DNA of 64,000 nucleotides from a virus (IMGVR_UViG_2541047873_000001), one strand, 5' to 3'; shown: positions 3,152 to 52,345, numbered from the stretch's first letter. Notes: a model not told the origin generated them from the letters alone. Numbers and translations are program-made.

Positions 3152-3758
3152 ATCTAATTATGTTCTTCTTAATTATGATGAGTTAAACGAAAAGGGGCTG
3201 GCAAAACTCGTCAAAGAAATCGGTAAAGGAGGCTACAAGATAGCGAGGGTGATCCCCGCCAGTAATGGCAGGAAGAAAGACGGGATCATGACGCGCACGT
3301 TTACCCTTATCGGAATCGATGAGCAGACGATGGACGTTCAGGTTAATGATACTGGTGATATTTCTGGTGTAAAACTGAACGGAAAAATTGTTCCTTTCAA
3401 GCCAGTTAAAACGCTGATGGCTTTAGGGCAATCACTGGCTGCTTTATTTAATAAAGGCGCATCATCATTTCAGAAATCATTGGCGCGTAAGTTAGCTCGT
3501 GCGGCGAAAGATATTGATGATGGGAATAAGAAAATAAAAGGCGTTAAGTCCAATGCGCAGAAACTAGCAGAGGCAAAGGAATCTCGCGATGCGATCCGCG
3601 AGGATATTGAAAGGGCCAAAGAAAAATTAAATCAGGTGCAAGGTAATTCAGACCGCGCAACAAGAGAAACTGAAATCATTAGAACCGAGATGGCGCAGGA
3701 ACTGGCGAAAACTCGCGTATTGAAAGAAGAAATAGCGCGCCTGGAGGAAGATGCATGA
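3141..3758 (+). CDS. Coiled-coil protein, Hdf-like (homolog of DarA fragment)
   Basis: Start ATG at 3141 with an AGGAG RBS (the ORF-track start at 3117 is less likely); charged coiled-coil C-terminus resembles the central part of the next ORF. Confidence 0.4.
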   Translation: MSNKSNYVLLNYDELNEKGLAKLVKEIGKGGYKIARVIPASNGRKKDGIMTRTFTLIGIDEQTMDVQVNDTGDISGVKLNGKIVPFKPVKTLMALGQSLAALFNKGASSFQKSLARKLARAAKDIDDGNKKIKGVKSNAQKLAEAKESRDAIREDIERAKEKLNQVQGNSDRATRETEIIRTEMAQELAKTRVLKEEIARLEEDA

Positions 3759-5680
3759 TAAAGAAACCTATTCGAATAAATATCCAGTCCACTTTTGCAG
3801 ATACGCTCACTGGATATACGCCTAATCGTTGGGTGGCGGAAGATATCACCGAGGATGATTTACTTATCGAGCCTGCGACGCTGGAAGATATCGAGCTGGC
3901 CTATATGGGCAACGAAATTTTGGTAACTACCAATGAGGCAATGTTCGAAGCTTTAACCACAACAAAATTGCGGTTAGCGCAAACAATGCGAGCATTTGTC
4001 CGGGCGCTTAATCGCGGCCTGAATGGCACTGACATTGCTGCGGGTACGGATGAGGCAGGTGAATATGAAGACGGACGTAATAGTATCGGTGGGGCAATCA
4101 TTGGGCGCGTGCGCCGGGTTGCTAATATCCCTGTTGTAACAGCACAAATACCTCTAACCGATGGACAAACGACAAGCATAATTTTCCATTCTCCAACCGC
4201 AGACGGCACAAGAATTAAAGGGGATGACGAGCTGGTTGCGTTTCAGTTTCTTCTTAACAAAAGAAACGTTACGCATGTTGTTGCGCCAATCGGTGGGCGT
4301 GATGTATCTCTGAGCCAGGTGTGTCAGGCGCTTTCTAACCTCATTGAGCGTAACAGTGCAAAATTCAAAAAAGCAAAGGAGCGCCAGGACAAAATGAAGG
4401 CTGATATTGAGGGGTATCTCAATGAAGCCGACAAGCTGGCAGAAGAACGTTCTGTGCTGATTGAGCAGGTTGAAGACGCACAGCGGGGGCTGGCAGAGAA
4501 ACGCTCAACACTCAATGATATGCAGAATAAATTAGACGCACAAAAAGCCCTTAACGCGGAATTGCAGGCTAAGCGCGATAATTTATTGTCAGCTAAGAGC
4601 CAAGGAACTAAAGAGCGTGCCTTCAATGATCAACTGCGACACATAAAACATAATCTTGCTACAGAAGGCCAAACAACGCTGGATAATGGTGCTGTAGTTA
4701 AGTATGTCACGTCAGGCAGTGATAGCTTTGTCACGATTGAGGCACCAGAAGGCAATTTCAGTATTGATGTCAGTGCTGTTAAAGGTGGGAGTTCAGCGGA
4801 CGCTGCAACCAAATTACTTAAAGCCTATCGTGAACATAATGCTGATCAATACAAAGTGGATGTGTTGCCGGGCCAGCCTGAGCCAACTGATCAGCCGCAG
4901 CCTGAACAGGAGCCACAACCAGCATCACATCCTGATCCCCTGGAGGTTGGTAAATATCGCTATGCGCTACAATCTCGCCCGGCGGGTGTTGGTGCGGTTC
5001 CTGAAGGAAATAAAGCTGTACTTGACCGTCCTGATCAGGCTGATCCGTATTACGAATATGCTCGTCACGGAATCATTACGTATGACCGCAAACTGACAGA
5101 CGAAGAAGTCAGTCAGTACGAATTACGCTATCTGCCTGATGACGATGAACTGAGAGGGATGGCGAACGAGCTGGTTGCGTCCAGCATGGTAAAACATATT
5201 GATGGCTATGTAGATCTGTTTGGAAGTGACCTGAAAACATTCAAGGCGCAAGTTAAAATTCTTTTCCGCAAAGCGTTCCCGAACGTGGCATATCCACTTG
5301 GTGATGGGGAGAACCTTTTCATTATGGACGTGTATAACGCCCTTCAAAATCATTCAAGCGAAGTAAAAACAGATCCTGTAGTTGAGCCAGAATCGCAACC
5401 TGCACCAGCACCAGAACAGGAGCCGGAGCCAGAAGAAGCGGGTGAATCAGCAAGCGAAGCTGACCAGGAAGCAGATAAAGCGCTTGAGTACCTGAAATCC
5501 GTTCCGGAGCAGTTCACATCCCGCGATCTGACGGTCATAAGTGCTGAACTTGATCATGTGCAGGAAGCTGCAAACGCTCTTATCAGTGCTGGTCGATATG
5601 ACGAGAACGAAGCAACTGTAGGTGCAGCCGTTGACTACCTGATCAATATTCTGGCTGAAATTCAGCAGGGAGGTGCTTAA
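3755..5680 (+). CDS. darA: DarA-like internal head / antirestriction protein
   Basis: 641 aa, close to the ~639 aa I recall for P1 DarA; coiled-coil centre and PE/PQ-rich linkers; sits in a lydAB-hdf-darA-ddrA-ddrB-like order. Assignment is positional plus size, not motif-based. Confidence 0.5.
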   Translation: MIKKPIRINIQSTFADTLTGYTPNRWVAEDITEDDLLIEPATLEDIELAYMGNEILVTTNEAMFEALTTTKLRLAQTMRAFVRALNRGLNGTDIAAGTDEAGEYEDGRNSIGGAIIGRVRRVANIPVVTAQIPLTDGQTTSIIFHSPTADGTRIKGDDELVAFQFLLNKRNVTHVVAPIGGRDVSLSQVCQALSNLIERNSAKFKKAKERQDKMKADIEGYLNEADKLAEERSVLIEQVEDAQRGLAEKRSTLNDMQNKLDAQKALNAELQAKRDNLLSAKSQGTKERAFNDQLRHIKHNLATEGQTTLDNGAVVKYVTSGSDSFVTIEAPEGNFSIDVSAVKGGSSADAATKLLKAYREHNADQYKVDVLPGQPEPTDQPQPEQEPQPASHPDPLEVGKYRYALQSRPAGVGAVPEGNKAVLDRPDQADPYYEYARHGIITYDRKLTDEEVSQYELRYLPDDDELRGMANELVASSMVKHIDGYVDLFGSDLKTFKAQVKILFRKAFPNVAYPLGDGENLFIMDVYNALQNHSSEVKTDPVVEPESQPAPAPEQEPEPEEAGESASEADQEADKALEYLKSVPEQFTSRDLTVISAELDHVQEAANALISAGRYDENEATVGAAVDYLINILAEIQQGGA

Positions 5681-14284: not shown

Positions 14285-14520
14285 TTATATTCATGCCGTC
14301 GTAGCAAATTCTGCGACCAGGTTTGACAGCCTGAATACTTACGCGGACAACCGCACATTTCCGATATTGCGGTATTTTTGTGTCCGTAAAACCACGTTAC
14401 GCCCGAATTATGGTGGGGCGTGATGGGGAGGCTTCGGCCTGCTGGTTTCGTAAGTGCCAGTCTGTCAACCCTGTCACGTCCTGCCACCTGTTTGACAGCG
14501 GGTCGCAGGTTGTTTATCAA
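14285..14520 (+). ncRNA. Candidate C4-like antisense RNA or immI leader (approximate bounds)
   Basis: ORF-free leader before icd with a UUCG-loop hairpin (gaggcttcggcctg) and repeated ttgacag / ctgtcaa complementary elements, resembling the P1 c4-icd-ant layout. Confidence 0.3.
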
Positions 14521-25172: not shown

Positions 25173-26381
25173 ATGAGTCAGCAAGTAGAATCATCAAGCC
25201 TGGAGATCATCTCAACCGCAATTGAAACGCTGCGGACACAAATCGCGCTTATACAGAAACGAAATCCGGGCGATGACCTGTCAAAGCGACTGCATGAGAG
25301 CGTCATTGCCACTACAGATAACCTGGTGGCGGAAATCAACCAGCTCCTTGATGATGGGGCAGTTGATTACAATAAGCTGGTGGATCAGTTTGAGGAATAT
25401 CAGCAAGCCGTTAATGATGGCTTGATCCGTTTTTCTCAAGTCACTGGTGTATCAGCGACAGTTGAAAGCCTGGGGGATGCAGTTAATCAATTTGCCGCGA
25501 ATATGCGTAATGAGATCGGCAATCTGGAGGCGCGTCTTGAGCAGGCAAATACACTGCGCAAATCTGCTGAAGTCGATTTGAGTCGTTACAAAAAAGACTA
25601 TCCGCCAAGCCTGACAAAACGACTGGATGTTGCGGAGAAAGATAACCGCACGCTGAAAAGAGAGCGTCGGGAACTAAAAGAGCGTTTAACCAAGCTAAAT
25701 CAGCAATGCGTTGAGTATCAAGGCGAACTCGTCACACTGCGTAAAAAGTTAGCAGCGGCGCAGAGCATTATTGAAACATTGAAACGAGAGTGCTCAGAGC
25801 TTGGTCATGATCTGAATCGCGCCTGTGGCATGGGGCAAAGGCCAGAGACATTCCCGCTAATGTATGACGGAAGAGAAGCTATTGCCTATATCCATGAGTT
25901 TCCGCATGGTCTGGTCGCGGAGACTGGGCAACGTGGCGAAGCGTTGCTGACGGCAAATTACCATCAGCAAATCAGAACCAGCCGCCTGCTGACGATGGAT
26001 GTGATCCCGTCAGTATGGGGAACGCCGCTTTACTACCGAATTCCTGGCTTCGAAACTGACTGGAATACCGACATAGACGAATGTCTGGCAGATAAAATTA
26101 TGGCGTACCTTGAAACGGATTTTCCACGCTTGCATCGCCGGATTATGGACTCTAAGGATGCACCGATCGACGAATTGAAAATGCGTCCAGAGACGTTGGA
26201 GGCAATCAAGCAGACTGAGTTTGATACAGTGTTCAGTGTGGCCTGCATTCCAAGCAGCTTTCATGAAAGCATTCCGTTCATGCAGGGCGATCGCCGTCAG
26301 GAAATAATTGATGCTTGCCGGGTATGGGCGAACGAGTGGGATAAGAAGAACGGTGGAGTTGAAAATCTTTACGGGAAATAA
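25173..26381 (+). CDS. Coiled-coil protein of unknown function, bracketed by operator sites
   Basis: 402 aa; long coiled coil (residues ~100-210) and a globular C-terminus; good RBS. Confidence 0.5.
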   Translation: MSQQVESSSLEIISTAIETLRTQIALIQKRNPGDDLSKRLHESVIATTDNLVAEINQLLDDGAVDYNKLVDQFEEYQQAVNDGLIRFSQVTGVSATVESLGDAVNQFAANMRNEIGNLEARLEQANTLRKSAEVDLSRYKKDYPPSLTKRLDVAEKDNRTLKRERRELKERLTKLNQQCVEYQGELVTLRKKLAAAQSIIETLKRECSELGHDLNRACGMGQRPETFPLMYDGREAIAYIHEFPHGLVAETGQRGEALLTANYHQQIRTSRLLTMDVIPSVWGTPLYYRIPGFETDWNTDIDECLADKIMAYLETDFPRLHRRIMDSKDAPIDELKMRPETLEAIKQTEFDTVFSVACIPSSFHESIPFMQGDRRQEIIDACRVWANEWDKKNGGVENLYGK

Positions 26382-26415
26382 TGTGTTAGAAAATTAAAAT
26401 TGTTTTTCTAACATA
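26382..26415. promoter_or_regulatory. Palindromic operator pair
   Basis: tgtgttagaaaattaaaattgtttttctaacata: perfect inverted half-sites gttagaaaa / ttttctaac. Confidence 0.6.
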
Positions 26416-26532
26416 TTGATTATGTAGTTAACTTAACATAGAATTTTTCGTGCTGGTGGGGAGCTTCCCATGTCGCTTGCGGGTTTGATAGTCACTTCAT
26501 TGTCTTTCCCCACCAGCATCAAACAATTTTAA

Positions 26533-26546
26533 GTGTTAGAAAGTAA
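26533..26546. promoter_or_regulatory. Operator-like half-site (GTGTTAGAAAGT)
   Basis: Motif copy 120 bp downstream of the palindromic pair. Confidence 0.4.
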
Positions 26547-27726
26547 ATTTTAAGGTAAGGGAAAGCTCCGGCACCGTGCAAATACATGCCCGGCAGGTTT
26601 AGTGCGTAAAGTGGTTTCAGCGAGAGCATTTTACGGAGTAAACGACAGTGACTTGAGCCACGGAAGGTCTTTTTATGGTGTTCATTGATGATGATCTGGC
26701 AGTGAGTATGTTAAGTGGGCCAGGCTGCATCGGGTCATCATCAGTGCACATCCTCAACGTTAAGGAGGCGCAGAGTTGGGTTTTCCTCTTATTTTGCTGA
26801 CTCTGAGTCTCCTTAACGTTGCGGTAATGCACCTATGCGGATGTGGCCTTGCATTGTGTCTTGAAAGAATGGGGTAAGGCCGGGGATATTCCCAGGGGGA
26901 GGCACCCCCGCTGCAACGAACAGCCATAGACGGCAGTCGAGTGATGAAAACGTGAAAAGACTTTAAACCTCGTTACGGCTGGCGTGGCAAACGCGACAAC
27001 CGGGATAGGACGGTGACGGGCGGAGAGAGAGCCGCTTCAAGATAAAAGCCGACTATGGATTCCTTTCTGCGGGCCTTTGAAAGTGAATCTTGCTCAGGCA
27101 GTCGGCTTTTATGTTGATACGTAGCGATAACCGCGACAGGCGCGGCGGTAAGTATGGCGGGGTTATTCCTTCCCCGTTGAGGACACCGAGTTGCCAGGTT
27201 GACCATACGCCTAAGTGGCAATACCGCGAGTGGGATATTTGCCCACCTTCGGGTGGGTGTTTTTTCAGTGTTTTCGTCATGGTTAGCGACTTTGCGGCGG
27301 TTTAGAACCCGACCATTAAAGTAAATGCAAACGATGATCTGATGATGGTAGCGGCCTAAGAAGCCTGACGCCACGGGGTATGAGTCGTCCCCCGTCAAAA
27401 AATCGACCGCAGAGTGTCCCCGTCTGTGTATTAGGGAACGGGGAGGCATAACAGGCAAGGGCGCTGGTGTGATTAACCAGATGAATGAGAAGGGTCAGGT
27501 CTTTCTGGTCAGCGCCCTTACCTGTTACGTCCCTCCCGCGTAACAGCCATTGGTTAATGGCTTTCTGGGATAATGTCTTGTAACGGGTATATCCCGTCAT
27601 GCTGAAGGCGCTAATCACGCTGGAAGCCAGGGTTATGCATCCCCTGTTACCGAATTGCAGCCAGGGCGCGGTGCGCCGAAAAGCATACGGAGGTGGAAGC
27701 CCTCGCCGGAGACGTACCCGGCAAGT

Positions 27727-27803
27727 GATGGTGTAGCTCAGTAGGATAGAGCAGCAGCCTTCTAAGCTGTCGGTCGGTGGTTCGAATCCACCCACCATCG
27801 CCA
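27727..27803 (+). tRNA. tRNA-Arg (anticodon UCU)
   Basis: Hand-folded cloverleaf: acceptor gatggtg/caccatc, D arm gctc/gagc, anticodon loop cuUCUaa, T loop ggtgg-ttcgaat-ccacc, encoded CCA. Confidence 0.8.
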
Positions 27804-27808
27804 ATTTA

Positions 27809-27895
27809 GGGGAGTTAGTCCGTAGGGGTAGCGGGGTAGACTGTAAATCTACTGTCATTGCGACTCGGATGGTTCGACTCCATCACTCCCCACCA
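27809..27895 (+). tRNA. tRNA-Tyr (anticodon GUA), long variable arm
   Basis: Acceptor ggggagt/actcccc, anticodon arm gtaga-cuGUAaa-tctac, long variable arm, T arm gatgg-ttcgact-ccatc, CCA; resembles E. coli tRNA-Tyr. Confidence 0.7.
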
Positions 27896-27899
27896 AATT

Positions 27900-27975
27900 G
27901 CCGGTTTAGCTCAGTTGGTAGAGCGCCTGCCTTGTAAGCAGGATGTCAGCGGTTCGAGTCCGTTAACCGGCACCA
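27900..27975 (+). tRNA. tRNA-Thr (anticodon UGU)
   Basis: Acceptor gccggtt/aaccggc, D loop agctcagttggtagagc, anticodon arm cctgc-cuUGUaa-gcagg, T loop ttcgagt, CCA. Confidence 0.85.
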
Positions 27976-27983
27976 ACACAACA

Positions 27984-28056
27984 GGTAAGGGTATTTTGCG
28001 ACGTCGGAGATCGCCGAGCTTGGCAGAGGGTTCGAATCCCTACGAAGTACCCTTAC
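27984..28056 (+). other. tRNA-like element or pseudo-tRNA (T arm plus 10-bp terminal stem; no anticodon arm, no CCA)
   Basis: ggtaagggta...tacccttacc terminal helix encloses a gggttcgaatccc T-arm-like hairpin; too short for a complete tRNA. Confidence 0.25.
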
Positions 28057-28163
28057 CGTTGTGATGAATGCACAGGCTGATGTGCCGCAACTACAGTAGT
28101 GCGCGCTTTGCGGGGCTTGCTACAACCCTGTGTCGGAGTTCAGCACCGACCATCACAATCACT

Positions 28164-28250
28164 GGAGAGTAGGGAGCATGGTGCTCAAGCGGTCTTGAAA
28201 ACCGTCCCATTGCGCAAGCGATGATGGTTCGATTCCATTACTCTCCGCCA
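28164..28250 (+). tRNA. tRNA-Ser (anticodon UGA), type II
   Basis: Acceptor ggagagt/actctcc, anticodon arm gcggt-cuUGAaa-accgt as in E. coli tRNA-Ser(UGA), long variable arm, T loop ttcgatt, CCA. Confidence 0.7.
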
Positions 28251-28679
28251 GCGCAACGTTAAGAGTATTTGGCTAATTAAGCGAATGCCGGAAGCAGAAC
28301 CGGATCACCAAATGCGTACAGGCGTCATCGCCGCCCAGTCAGCCAAATGCTCTTACCATTGCGGTGAATGCGGCTAAGCGCACGCGGAACAGTTAAAACA
28401 GTAAAGGTGGTCTTTTTACTGGCGTAACGAGAATCCATAAGTGATCCGGCGTTAATTGTTAACTGGTTAACGTCACCGGGAGGCACCCGGCACCGCAACC
28501 TAACAGCAATGGCGTTTTGTCTTAAAAGGTGGCTGCAAGTGATGGATTTTTGGGCGTTTGCCGATAAAAACCCGGAGTGGACATTATTGTTTCTGCTGGT
28601 GGTTGCATACGGGGTAGAGCAAGCGGCAAAAGCCTTACGCGGTTCTGGCAAAAAGCGTAAGCGTAATTAACAGTAATCT

Positions 28680-28755
28680 GGCCCTTTAGCTCAGTGGTTA
28701 GAGCGGGCGACTCATAATCGCACGGTCACCGGTTCAAGTCCGGTAGGGGCCACCA
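28680..28755 (+). tRNA. tRNA with CAU anticodon, most like tRNA-Ile2 (AUA-decoding); elongator Met not excluded
   Basis: Near-complete resemblance to E. coli ileX-type tRNA as I recall it (GGCCCUUUAGCUCAGUGGUUAGAGC...CUCAUAAUCGC...GGUUCAAGUCC...GGGGCCACCA). Confidence 0.8.
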
Positions 28756-29207
28756 CATTTGGTTGTAACACGGCGTATGGCACATGCGTCGTTAGCGGTC
28801 TGGTGTAGCTGTTAGGTACCTTTTACTAACACTGCATGGGCACACCAGGTAGCCGGAATGTGCAAGCCCCGTTCATAGCGTCGGACTGCGGATTCACCAT
28901 CCTGGCGATTCGGTGTGACAGCCGGAAGAGCACGGCGTACAACAGGAAAAGGCGTTTAATTAGCGTGAGCGCCGTTTCCGTTGTGGTAATTGCGGCTATG
29001 CGCTCGTGACGAAGCCATTTTCATTCACTACGTTCTGATAAGTGTCGTCGCCGGGCGTGGCTAACCTGGCAGGTGGAGGCACCACCGCCACAACTCCTTT
29101 CAATTCATCATATAGCCGCTCAGGCTGTAACCCTTAATTAATACGAAGTTACGACGTCACTACCGGTTCAGCCGGGGGATAGTCGCGCGTGTAAAAAAGG
29201 AGACGTT

Positions 29208-29783
29208 ATGTTAACGGCGAACGATAACGCGTATTTAGAAGATGATCTCGTTTTGAGTGACTTTATAGGGCGACGAGAATGCTGGACGCAAAAGCGCGAG
29301 GAGCTTTATGCAGCGTTAGTTCGTAAAGGCGTCAACATCGAAACCGCACAGAACGGTGATATGACAGTGGTAAGTGTTGGACTGCACGGCGTAAGTGTGT
29401 CAGCAATCAATCATGAGCCGTACATTGCGTTATCCGAGTCGATGGTAAGGTTAGTTAAGTTCCTGAAGTACACAGAAGCGAATAACGTGCTCATCGCCAA
29501 AAAGAACATCCCGTTCTCATCGGCCTTTTACTGGATGATGAAGGGGCTTGATGCCCGGCGAACATCATGGCCTAAAGGGAGCTATATATCGATGCTCCGT
29601 GGCAGTGTTGGTAGCAAAGAAAAGCTCGTCGAATTCCTGCCGGAAGAGGCATTCGATATTGTTGAAGGTTGTGATGTGATGGTTATGCCTCGCCTGGTAA
29701 TGATGAATGGGGATTTACAGGCGCAGACAGACTGGTTTGCAACTGGAGTTGATATTATCGCTACTGACTGGGAGGTTTTTTGA
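29208..29783 (+). CDS. Hypothetical protein with C-terminal DUF2829-like module
   Basis: 191 aa; AAGGAG RBS; C-terminus FYWMMKGLDARRTSW...DIIATDWEVF. Confidence 0.45.
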   Translation: MLTANDNAYLEDDLVLSDFIGRRECWTQKREELYAALVRKGVNIETAQNGDMTVVSVGLHGVSVSAINHEPYIALSESMVRLVKFLKYTEANNVLIAKKNIPFSSAFYWMMKGLDARRTSWPKGSYISMLRGSVGSKEKLVEFLPEEAFDIVEGCDVMVMPRLVMMNGDLQAQTDWFATGVDIIATDWEVF

Positions 29784-52055: not shown

Positions 52056-52160
52056 GAAAACACACAGTTGCGCCCTGGCATTATCGTGGGGTATATTTCT
52101 ACGGCACCTTAGAAAAACGGGTGCCGGGATTGGAACCCCGGATAATGCAAAAGGCGACAC

Positions 52161-52184
52161 AGACGCCGAAAGCGTCTTTTTTTG
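52161..52184 (+). terminator. Rho-independent terminator
   Basis: agacgccgaaagcgtct hairpin plus a T7 run. Confidence 0.6.
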
Positions 52185-52199
52185 TGTCATGCCATCGCA

Positions 52200-52345
52200 C
52201 AGCCATGCGTAGCGTTTAGCTCAGAGATCAATGGTAGTGCTGGCTGGGCTGCCGAAAGGCAGGCCGGTTCCCTTTTGCGCCGGTAGTTCCAACCCAGTCA
52301 GTGCTACCGCCATTGAGATTGGAACCTCACGCGGTAGCTCCTTAA
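52200..52345 (+). ncRNA. Candidate C4-like antisense RNA or immI leader, second copy (approximate bounds)
   Basis: GAAA-loop hairpin ggctgccgaaaggcagcc-like and elements complementary to the icd RBS region (ggaggctgcc); same architecture as 14285..14520. Confidence 0.3.

Follow-up and report, generated by a model that had tools for sequence, protein, structure and literature searches.

A tmRNA-like RNA module with a 5' arm complementary to host tmRNA in the operon leader of a P1/D6-like phage-plasmid

What is encoded between positions 26420 and 29200 of IMGVR_UViG_2541047873_000001, a viral DNA of 64,000 nucleotides (nt) that we call the window when we mean the whole stretch? The region belongs to a P1/D6-like phage-plasmid, where it is the D6-type counterpart of the P1 ban operon leader. 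The initial annotation described it as an essentially noncoding island that may hold unannotated small RNAs, a view supported by tRNA calls, folds, covariation, and comparison of open reading frames (ORFs). Here we describe a 176-nt module of the island (27269-27444, between a terminator hairpin and a long stem that we call cassette 1) that corresponds to the message half of transfer-messenger RNA (tmRNA) and whose 5' arm is complementary to the tag template of host tmRNA. Bacteria rescue stalled ribosomes and control protein quality mainly through trans-translation, a target of antibiotics and a pathway that some phages are known to need. Our reading, in which we have even confidence, is that the module is a tmRNA-derived RNA that would target the host tmRNA, masking its tag template and presenting one of its own.

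The module has a tag frame and two pseudoknots but no tRNA-like domain

The module was first flagged by a weak match to the Rfam model tmRNA_permuted (24.1 bits, E 0.037). It is composed of the following parts.

27269-27326, plus strand: 5' arm, with the blocks GUUUUCGUC (27270-27278), GCGAC (27286-27290), and UUUGCGGC (27291-27298), then an A-rich linker
27327-27359, plus strand: tag-like frame GCA AAC GAT GAT CTG ATG ATG GTA GCG GCC TAA, translated as ANDDLMMVAA*
27346-27349 / 27370-27373, plus strand: helix-5-like stem enclosing the final codons and the stop
27374-27378 / 27390-27394 (S1) and 27384-27387 / 27404-27407 (S2), plus strand: H-type pseudoknot PKa
27408-27413 / 27423-27428 (S1) and 27417-27422 / 27439-27444 (S2), plus strand: H-type pseudoknot PKb

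In E. coli tmRNA the frame-setting bases U85 and A86 stand at -5 and -4 of the resume codon (PMC2481249). The module has a frame-setting-type U (27322) and A (27323) at -5 and -4 of its resume-like GCA, and UAAAU-GCA is invariant in 22 aligned members of the family to which it belongs. Two pattern scans of IMG/VR, with at least 120 matches each, added many-tRNA contigs and many proviruses of about 40-55 kb to this family. Among the matches listed, the tag is 10 codons long in 18 of the 19 distinct tag sequences from the first scan (13 codons in one distant relative) and in all variants from the second. Tags include ANDDVVLMAA, ANDDLMLMAA, ANDEQFLAVA, ANEEMYLAVA, and ANDNEFKVAA, and they end in AA or VA. 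The constraint on the tag is of a coding type: codons 9 and 10 are GCN and GCN, with variation at the third base only, where all four bases occur; codon 6 has an invariant middle U; and NUN codons occupy the middle of the tag. Because the family retains its frame-setting bases and resume codon, a frame of near-constant length with an Ala-Ala end, and a stop in helix 5, we infer that the frame is decoded by trans-translation.

The structures that follow the tag are supported by covariation in homologues. We tested covariation on the non-P1 set because MAFFT misaligned PKb between the P1-type and the other members. Across 15 non-P1 relatives, the helix-5-like stem, PKa, and PKb are paired in 93.2% of cells, compared with 30-43% for slid partners, and 14 pairs are changed on both sides, compared with 1-5; none of 500 shuffles reached the observed value. 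The window copy was joined to the family via a covariance model built without P1-type sequences, which finds 27317-27442 at 69.6 bits (E ~1e-11), with real tmRNAs, including E. coli ssrA, at 18-35 bits.

Further parts of a tmRNA were sought around the module. The tRNA-like domain (TLD; 7-bp acceptor stem, G3:U70, T-arm, and 3' CCA) is absent, and ARAGORN called no tmRNA in the window or at 20+ family loci; as a control, genuine tmRNAs picked up by the same scan, permuted ones among them, were called. No T-loop lies within -400 to +900 nt of the module in six lineages, and in Aeromonas phage pAh6-C the entire intergenic space holding the module is 277 nt. There is no pseudoknot 1 (PK1) upstream of the tag, the 5' arm being unstructured in the RNAalifold consensus, and the two pseudoknots are downstream. 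Gathering scores of the Rfam tmRNA models were not reached (tmRNA_permuted 24.1 and 19.2 bits, gathering score 47; beta_tmRNA 11.2 bits, gathering score 84), nor did any model of Rfam 15 reach its threshold for the module. The module is the message half of a tmRNA, without a TLD and without PK1.

The 5' arm is complementary to the tag template of host tmRNA

The arm is about 50 nt long, and its blocks are complementary to nt ~74-104 of the host tmRNA, within an overall segment of nt ~68-106 that takes in the PK1 3' strand, the frame-setting stretch upstream, the resume codon, and the first six tag codons. The match is collinear: (UA)GUUUUCGUC, the best-conserved part of the arm, complements the host tag codons GAC GAA AAC UA exactly; GCGAC complements the resume-codon region (nt 88-92); and UUUGCGG(C) complements the PK1 3' strand (nt 74-81). 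The complementary blocks are also the conserved columns of the arm, and the stretch between them, a predicted bulge, is variable in length and sequence. No conserved structure was found inside the arm in the RNAalifold consensus.

In local alignments against the reverse complement of E. coli ssrA, the arm gave a z score of 4.9 in the window and 5-10 in relatives, always at nt 68-106. Against the sense strand of ssrA the scores were 12-17, equal to the shuffle background. The longest exact complement (8-11 nt) fell at tmRNA nt 96-106 in 63 of the 67 distinct arms, compared with 6-7 nt at scattered positions for shuffled arms. In two lytic lineages, a near-consensus sigma-70 promoter (TTGACA-17-TATAGT, 11/12, and TTGACA-17-TAGATT) ends 6-10 nt before the motif; this spacing would put the transcript start 0-4 nt before the motif, so that the RNA would begin with the arm. 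From the arm to the GCA, an A-rich linker spans 12 nt, compared with 11 nt from PK1 to G90 in E. coli tmRNA.

One variant of the arm fits another type of tmRNA better. Two contigs with the 13-codon tag, L029 and L059, carry the arm UUGUUCGUC, which is the complement of GAC GAA CAA, and in a genome scan GCAAACGACGAACAATACGC proved to be the tag sequence of tmRNAs from Pasteurellaceae and also from Photorhabdus. Against Pasteurellaceae/Photorhabdus-type tmRNAs the L029/L059 arms score 33, and against E. coli tmRNA 25; among arms of enterobacterial phages, 15 of 16 score higher against E. coli tmRNA, with one tie. In Photorhabdus temperata and P. khanii (L141, L192), the tmRNA has the GAC GAA CAA (ANDEQY) codons, elsewhere typical of Pasteurellaceae, on a backbone that is otherwise enterobacterial.

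Some further properties of the arm are recorded here as side observations. In P1-type members, the arm block UUUGCGG (27291-27298) can pair over 7 bp with CCGCAGA between the pseudoknots (27406-27413), and every member can form 4 invariant bp between UGCG and the resume-codon UGCA (RNAalifold); both pairings could represent a closed form that the RNA adopts before docking. A natural arm-deletion variant occurs in L069 (IMGVR_UViG_3300045988_169992, ~2358-2493), a P1-type copy in which the arm is replaced by unrelated sequence and the tag and pseudoknots are kept (58 bits).

A model for template replacement and its main rival

The RNA has no means of its own to enter the ribosome, but its arm is fitted to the template of the host tmRNA; we therefore favor docking onto tmRNA and replacement of the template. 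In this model, derepression or lytic growth would lead to synthesis of the RNA and its release from a polycistronic transcript, with the long stems and tRNAs that flank it as putative processing signals. The 5' arm would then pair with the single-stranded tag template of the host tmRNA in the cell and invade PK1, so that the host resume codon would be masked. The phage linker and resume codon would emerge ~12 nt past the end of the duplex, where the host linker (11 nt) would otherwise be, and host tmRNA-SmpB on a stalled ribosome would resume on the phage template, adding ANDDLMMVAA rather than ANDENYALAA; across the family, the added tag would be a phage-specified ANDD-hydrophobic4-AA. The phage may benefit in that ribosome rescue goes on while the rescued proteins meet a different fate. 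That the phage RNA actually replaces the tag, a "template-swap" by a hybrid host-phage two-piece tmRNA, is a tentative proposal that we regard as possible but short of probable.

The main rival to the template swap is a pure inhibitor or decoy of tmRNA. Here the arm would block the resume codon, the remainder of the RNA would stabilize it or titrate S1, RNase R, or SmpB, and the tag would never be translated; where a TLD-like element adjoins the module, that element would titrate SmpB, as reported for the TLD-only RNA of mycobacteriophage DS6A. The evidence of arm complementarity holds equally for such an inhibitor, and inhibition of tmRNA by a TLD-only phage RNA has been recorded before. Of 127 loci with the module, 23 also have a TLD-like element, and an inhibitor calls for no unprecedented hand-over of a template. 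Left unexplained, however, are the invariance of U-5/A-4 and GCA, the 10-codon length, the stop in helix 5, and the synonymous-only variation of the terminal Ala codons. These features matter only if the frame is decoded and therefore count against the inhibitor, which we consider unlikely.

Several points weigh against our own reading, in which the module masks the host template and offers a replacement. It presupposes that a ribosome could resume on a template held to tmRNA by base pairs only. The phage tag retains the Ala-Ala end, which blurs the advantage of a swap, and its conservation could be attributable in part to the helix-5-like stem. The window itself has one of the weaker arms (a 9-nt perfect block, z ~5), and those of Aeromonas phage pAh6-C and of the L081 group are a poorer fit to E. 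coli tmRNA. Host matching of the L029/L059 arm is presumed. With respect to energies, RNAduplex gave -43.7 for the arm and -32.7 +/- 3.2 for its shuffles, with some random window 47-mers doing equally well; RNAcofold gave a net gain of -4.1 kcal/mol compared with -5.5 +/- 2.3 for shuffled arms. Because the energies fail to separate real from shuffled arms, the antisense claim rests on alignment statistics, positional consistency, and conservation.

Two further results of the folding programs concern the same pairing. The minimum free energy dimer from RNAcofold holds all 25 predicted arm-tmRNA pairs. An RNAduplex energy of -58 kcal/mol was considered as evidence of antisense pairing and was set aside as uninformative after comparison with shuffles and random window 47-mers.

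The family is found in unrelated phages

DNA homologues of the ~180-nt module occur in 99 phage records from unrelated groups, among them P1, P7, D6, Ackermannviridae (phiEa2809, Magnus), the N4-like ECBP1, Drexlerviridae (CS01), Akiravirus, and Chaseviridae (pAh6-C). In most of these records the match lies in unannotated DNA, and in the rest it is annotated only as "hypothetical protein". The family spans at least six phage lineages, and its members come from Punavirus, Ackermannviridae, Schitoviridae, Drexlerviridae, Chaseviridae, Akiravirus, many-tRNA contigs, and lambdoid prophages. Among complete E. coli genomes in RefSeq, 656 of 5426 (12%) contain it, with 554 places on plasmids and 150 on chromosomes, and among the matches listed nothing is annotated there save an occasional "hypothetical protein". 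One setting is a lambdoid prophage (L364, E. coli NZ_CP074756.1, 3140-4210), in which the module (3490-3670) lies within a 1.07-kb Q-to-holin gap that is unannotated in RefSeq; it is flanked by two long-stem cassettes and lies 3' of the Q antiterminator gene and before the holin gene. We read the sequences upstream of this module as pR' and tR'. In Stx phages, the Q-to-holin slot carries tRNAs and stx.

This distribution bears on a second alternative, in which the island is an ordinary leader made of terminators, RNase processing sites, and pre-tRNA leaders or spacers, with the tmRNA-like stretch a decaying and functionless capture of ssrA. The island is indeed an operon leader with tRNAs, its long stems flank cassettes in the manner of processing stems, and simple promoter and terminator patterns in the region are at chance level, the excess lying in long stems and conservation. 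Yet frame length, pseudoknot covariation, and arm complementarity are kept across phage families that share no other DNA, and in lytic phages the module has its own near-consensus promoter, unlike a decaying fragment. We judge this alternative improbable.

A third alternative would make the phage RNA self-sufficient, as a two-piece phage tmRNA in which the module is the coding piece, the arm is a homologue of the tmRNA 5' half (UUCGAC region and helix 2), and the acceptor piece is an element downstream of it.

27976-28060, plus strand: long-stem cassette 2, or mini-element, with a 17-bp stem around UUUUGCGAC, a small hairpin, and a T-arm-like GGGUUCGAAUCCC

The initial annotation called this mini-element tRNA-like. 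A conserved structured element is present (z -3.6, with a conserved core and compensatory stem changes in contigs L037 and L254), but it is not recognized as a tRNA: ARAGORN makes no call, and the best lax Rfam matches are tRNA-Sec at 14.6 bits and mascRNA at 14.9 bits, the RF00005 cloverleaf being unmatched. Neither the mini-element nor the module has an Rfam match at gathering score. The layout of the mini-element is like that of a TLD closed on itself, and its order (stem, U-rich GCGAC, hairpin, T-arm, stem) speaks for an acceptor piece, as do its position directly 3' of the module in L254 and a loose alignment of GUUUUCGUCAUGG with the UUUCGACAGGG region by the Rfam model beta_tmRNA (11 bits). 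The mini-element has no G3:U70 acceptor and no free CCA end, however, and on these grounds we rejected it as an alanine-accepting TLD; ARAGORN and Rfam recognize neither a TLD nor a permuted tmRNA. Close to the tag module it occurs at only 23 of the 127 loci, the other 104 lacking it, a T-loop is missing in six lineages, predicted transcript starts leave no space for an acceptor strand, and the arm matches the tmRNA sense strand only at the level of shuffles. A two-piece phage tmRNA is thus a very improbable explanation, and the mini-element may instead be a processing signal or an SmpB decoy.

Lastly, a small-peptide gene opened by the AUG in UAAAUGCAA (MQTMI* in the window) is scarcely credible, for although this AUG is invariant, its product of 5-9 residues varies in sequence between members, no Shine-Dalgarno-like sequence precedes it, the GCA frame is constant in length and chemistry, and the same UAAAUGCAAACGA occurs in bona fide tmRNAs; we rejected the AUG as a micro-ORF start.

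Comparison with known tmRNAs and phage RNAs

The module resembles one-piece tmRNA (SsrA) in U-5/A-4, the GCA resume codon, the ANDx...Ala-Ala tag, the helix-5-like stop, and H-type pseudoknots after the tag. It differs in having no TLD, helix 2, or PK1, in having two post-tag pseudoknots rather than three, in its length (~180 vs 363 nt), and in its 5' end, which is an antisense arm to tmRNA itself. With the two-piece (permuted) tmRNAs of alpha- and beta-proteobacteria and cyanobacteria it shares a separate template RNA that needs a base-paired hold on an acceptor RNA, and its closest Rfam matches, although weak, are tmRNA_permuted and beta_tmRNA. In two-piece tmRNAs, however, both pieces come from one gene and pair via the acceptor stem and helix 2, whereas the partner of the module would be a complete host tmRNA, paired over its PK1 and tag template.

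Phage tmRNAs on record are complete ones (the mycobacteriophage Bxz1 group and Bacillus phage G) and the TLD-only RNA of mycobacteriophage DS6A, and a TLD-only molecule similar to the latter was shown to inhibit host tmRNA (PMC4131195, PMC11915505); a 2014 census of RefSeq viruses found ssrA in mycobacteriophages only. The module is the converse of the DS6A RNA: it has only the message half, joined to an antisense arm. It would also be like AgvB, in that a phage RNA pairs with an abundant regulatory RNA of the host and neutralizes or redirects it, but unlike AgvB its target would be tmRNA and the phage RNA also bears a replacement template. AgvB, an anti-sRNA of an enterohemorrhagic E. coli prophage (Tree et al. 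2014, Mol Cell), reportedly mimics an mRNA target of GcvB as a plain sponge.

In the part of the literature on phage tmRNA-like, antisense, or mimic RNAs that was accessible to us, we found no description of the module family, nor, within the same access, of any virus using an RNA to target or reprogram tmRNA. A preprint reporting RNA-seq of P1vir does not mention the module RNA. Within that literature, the family is an undescribed and widespread tmRNA-derived RNA variant with a new architecture. If the template swap is true, this would be the first known virus to reprogram trans-translation. Docking, if true, would provide a natural case of a template supplied to tmRNA-SmpB in trans, a tool for putting new tags on rescued proteins, and a new class of phage counter-measure beside phage tRNAs and a Tad2-like anti-defense gene; even in the inhibitor-only case, the RNA would count as a new anti-host RNA. 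The family merits an Rfam entry at the least, and P1, among the best-studied phages, gains an overlooked RNA gene. Members also occur in lytic phages considered for therapy.

The island is a leader built of RNA cassettes

Taken as a whole, the island reads as a mostly noncoding leader of a prophage-repressor-controlled operon, assembled as a string of RNA cassettes. It is bordered by pmgS (25173-26381) on the left and a homologue of D6 orf6 (29208-29783) on the right. The entire studied region is 90% identical to phage D6 over 85% of its length, and 27228-27726 used as a query is 100% identical to E. coli plasmid NZ_CP104667.1. From 27128 to 28937 it is collinear with the P1 order Oban (the C1 operator), "dicF-like region", tRNAs, plp/upl, tciA-C, tRNA-Ile2, and ban. 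The resemblance to the P1 ban leader thus covers Oban, the dicF-like region, the tRNAs, tci, and tRNA-Ile2, and the resemblance to the lambdoid dicF locus covers two blocks, A and B, described below; unlike these loci, the island has no DicF, tciA, tciB, plp, and upl are missing, tRNA-Arg(TCT) and tRNA-Tyr replace tRNA-Asn, and the left 700 nt are found in D6 only. Its first elements are regulatory.

26383-26414: divalent operator-like inverted repeat GTGTTAGAAAA / TTTTCTAACAT with 21-nt spacing, at the position of the C1 operator Oban of P1
26416-26444, plus strand: sigma-70-like promoter TTGATT-17-TAGAAT directly after the operator, matching the consensus at 9/12, in a position analogous to P1ban/P2ban
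26533-26543: further single operator-like copy

The motif GTGTTAGAAA(R) has 20 copies in the window compared with 2.2 expected (9-fold enriched), and GTGTTAGAAA forms inverted pairs with 21-nt spacing at four places (26383/26404, 30163/30184, 45857/45878, and 50905/50926). It is probably the dispersed operator of the phage-plasmid's C1-type repressor, and its sequence differs from that of the P1 operator. By analogy with P1, the promoter at 26416-26444 is the likely start of the island transcript. Because the divalent operator and promoter mirror the P1 C1 operator and P1ban/P2ban, the island is probably silent in the lysogen and switched on by induction.

The DNA between the promoter and the module contains hairpins and a replaced DicF slot.

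26446-27117, plus strand: D6-type leader with three long hairpins; homologous DNA in phage D6 only (83% identity), and no protein-family matches for its ORFs
27131-27227, plus strand: block A, 92% identical to phage Tritos DNA immediately 5' of annotated DicF, and beside the "dicF-like region" of P1
27228-27266, plus strand: variable stretch and hairpin terminator in the DicF slot, a candidate 3' end of a short sRNA (small RNA)

Folded against shuffles, the three hairpins (26446-26523, 26735-26840, and 27037-27117) gave z scores of -4.1, -7.4, and -4.7. The hairpin terminator that had been noted at ~27240-27266 was recovered as a terminator-like hairpin at 27240-27259 followed by a T-run (-13.3 kcal/mol, z -2.2); P1 has other sequence 5' of the same hairpin. 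Rfam gave no DicF match in the window, and only the DicF-flanking blocks are common with Tritos; the DicF slot holds a different short stretch with the terminator hairpin, and then a 1.1-kb insert.

Beyond the module lie long-stem cassettes and the tRNA cluster.

27440-27536, plus strand: long-stem cassette 1, with the motif AACAGGYAAGGG on both arms
27537-27726, plus strand: hairpin-rich leader before the tRNA cluster, near-invariant across 18 distinct P1-like sequences; one hairpin varies but stays paired (RNAalifold)
27727-27803, plus strand: tRNA-Arg(TCT), called by ARAGORN and Rfam
27809-27895, plus strand: tRNA-Tyr(GTA), called by ARAGORN and Rfam
27900-27975, plus strand: tRNA-Thr(TGT), called by ARAGORN and Rfam
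28164-28250, plus strand: tRNA-Ser(TGA), called by ARAGORN, with Rfam tRNA-Sec at 44.6 bits, just under threshold; also in D6 and P7
28252-28363, plus strand: long-stem cassette 3 (CGCAACGUUAAGAGUAUUUGG ... CCAAAUGCUCUUACCAUUGCG), -43.6 kcal/mol, z -4.6
28680-28755, plus strand: tRNA with CAT anticodon, called by ARAGORN and Rfam; its P1 homologue is annotated tRNA-Ile2 (ileX-like)

The long imperfect stem that had been placed at 27441..27540 is real: the arms of cassette 1 (27440-27466 / 27510-27536) are 27 nt long and 81% complementary (-53.4 kcal/mol, z -6.0), and the alignment of the window with P1 contains one compensatory change in them, U-A to C-G. Cassettes 27440-27536, 27976-28060, and 28252-28363 are related through the motif AACAGGYAAGRG, with the consensus 5' ..CAACAGGUAAGRGC.. 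and 3' ..GCYCUUWCCGUUGUG.. and a conserved internal mismatch. They bracket different inserts and flank the tmRNA-like module in unrelated phages (e.g. L364:3420-3490 and 3668-3780), which suggests that the long stems are processing stems or cassette-boundary elements. The leader at 27537-27726, folded alone, has a z score of -1.9.

The count of five tRNAs also held, with exactly five ARAGORN calls, four of which Rfam makes at gathering score. The tRNA-Asn(GTT) position of P1, P7, and D6 is occupied here by tRNA-Arg(TCT) and the extra tRNA-Tyr(GTA). Contigs L029 and L081 also have an Arg(UCU) tRNA, or an Arg(UCU)-like sequence recognized by eye, beside the tmRNA-like module, and L102 has one by ARAGORN call; in L029 the module comes directly after tRNA-Arg(UCU), as read by eye from the anticodon loop CUUCUAA and the 3' GCCA.

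The right part of the island is as follows.

28360-28497, plus strand: block B, STnc100-like, 78% identical to Tritos DNA between DicF and dicB; fold z -2.6
28542-28670, plus strand: tciC-like ORF for a small membrane protein, 42 codons, starting at Met12 of the 53-codon ORF 28509-28670
28757-29207, plus strand: noncoding tail and 5' untranslated region of the next gene, with a terminator-like hairpin at 28951-28973

Block B scores 40.8 bits against Rfam STnc100 (model positions 31-147 of 206), and the gathering score of 47 is not reached. The earlier statement that the island has no convincing protein gene was nearly right, the exception being the tciC homologue at 28542-28670, which aligns with the 35-residue TciC of P1, with Upf69.6 of P7, and with an unannotated frame of D6, and has a weak phrog_23152 match; this is the sole plausible protein gene of the island. 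The long minus-strand ORFs (26973..27458 and 27316..27858), by contrast, had been taken for artefacts, and the homologous DNA of P1, P7, and/or D6 bears this out with in-frame stops or frameshifts; they have no Pfam matches. Their sole strong PHROG match, phrog_27020, is the same DNA in P1-like genomes, and we rejected it as coding evidence because P1 and P7 have stops and frameshifts there.

The tail had been described as GC-rich and as containing tRNA-like fragments. It is mildly richer in GC (53% compared with 47.8% for the window) but not unusually structured (z -0.9), and ARAGORN and Rfam find no match to the supposed fragments. Part of it (28757-28938) is 74-86% identical to unannotated DNA of P1-like, Stx2/lambdoid (mEp460), and phiV10/TL-2011b-like phages, and may be another conserved noncoding module.

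Among the neighboring loci, the first gene past the island (29208-29783, plus strand), the D6 orf6 homologue, has a Pfam Tad2-like (Thoeris anti-defense 2) domain (E 4.4e-10) and matches phrog_7362, so that an anti-defense gene directly adjoins the tRNA/tmRNA-like island. Elsewhere in the window lie two C4 antisense RNA genes (14285-14491, 76.7 bits, and 52104-52314, 69.6 bits), one with a c4-a1b1 target element and the other beside an isrK match (62.5 bits), which makes two immunity-type antisense loci in the window.

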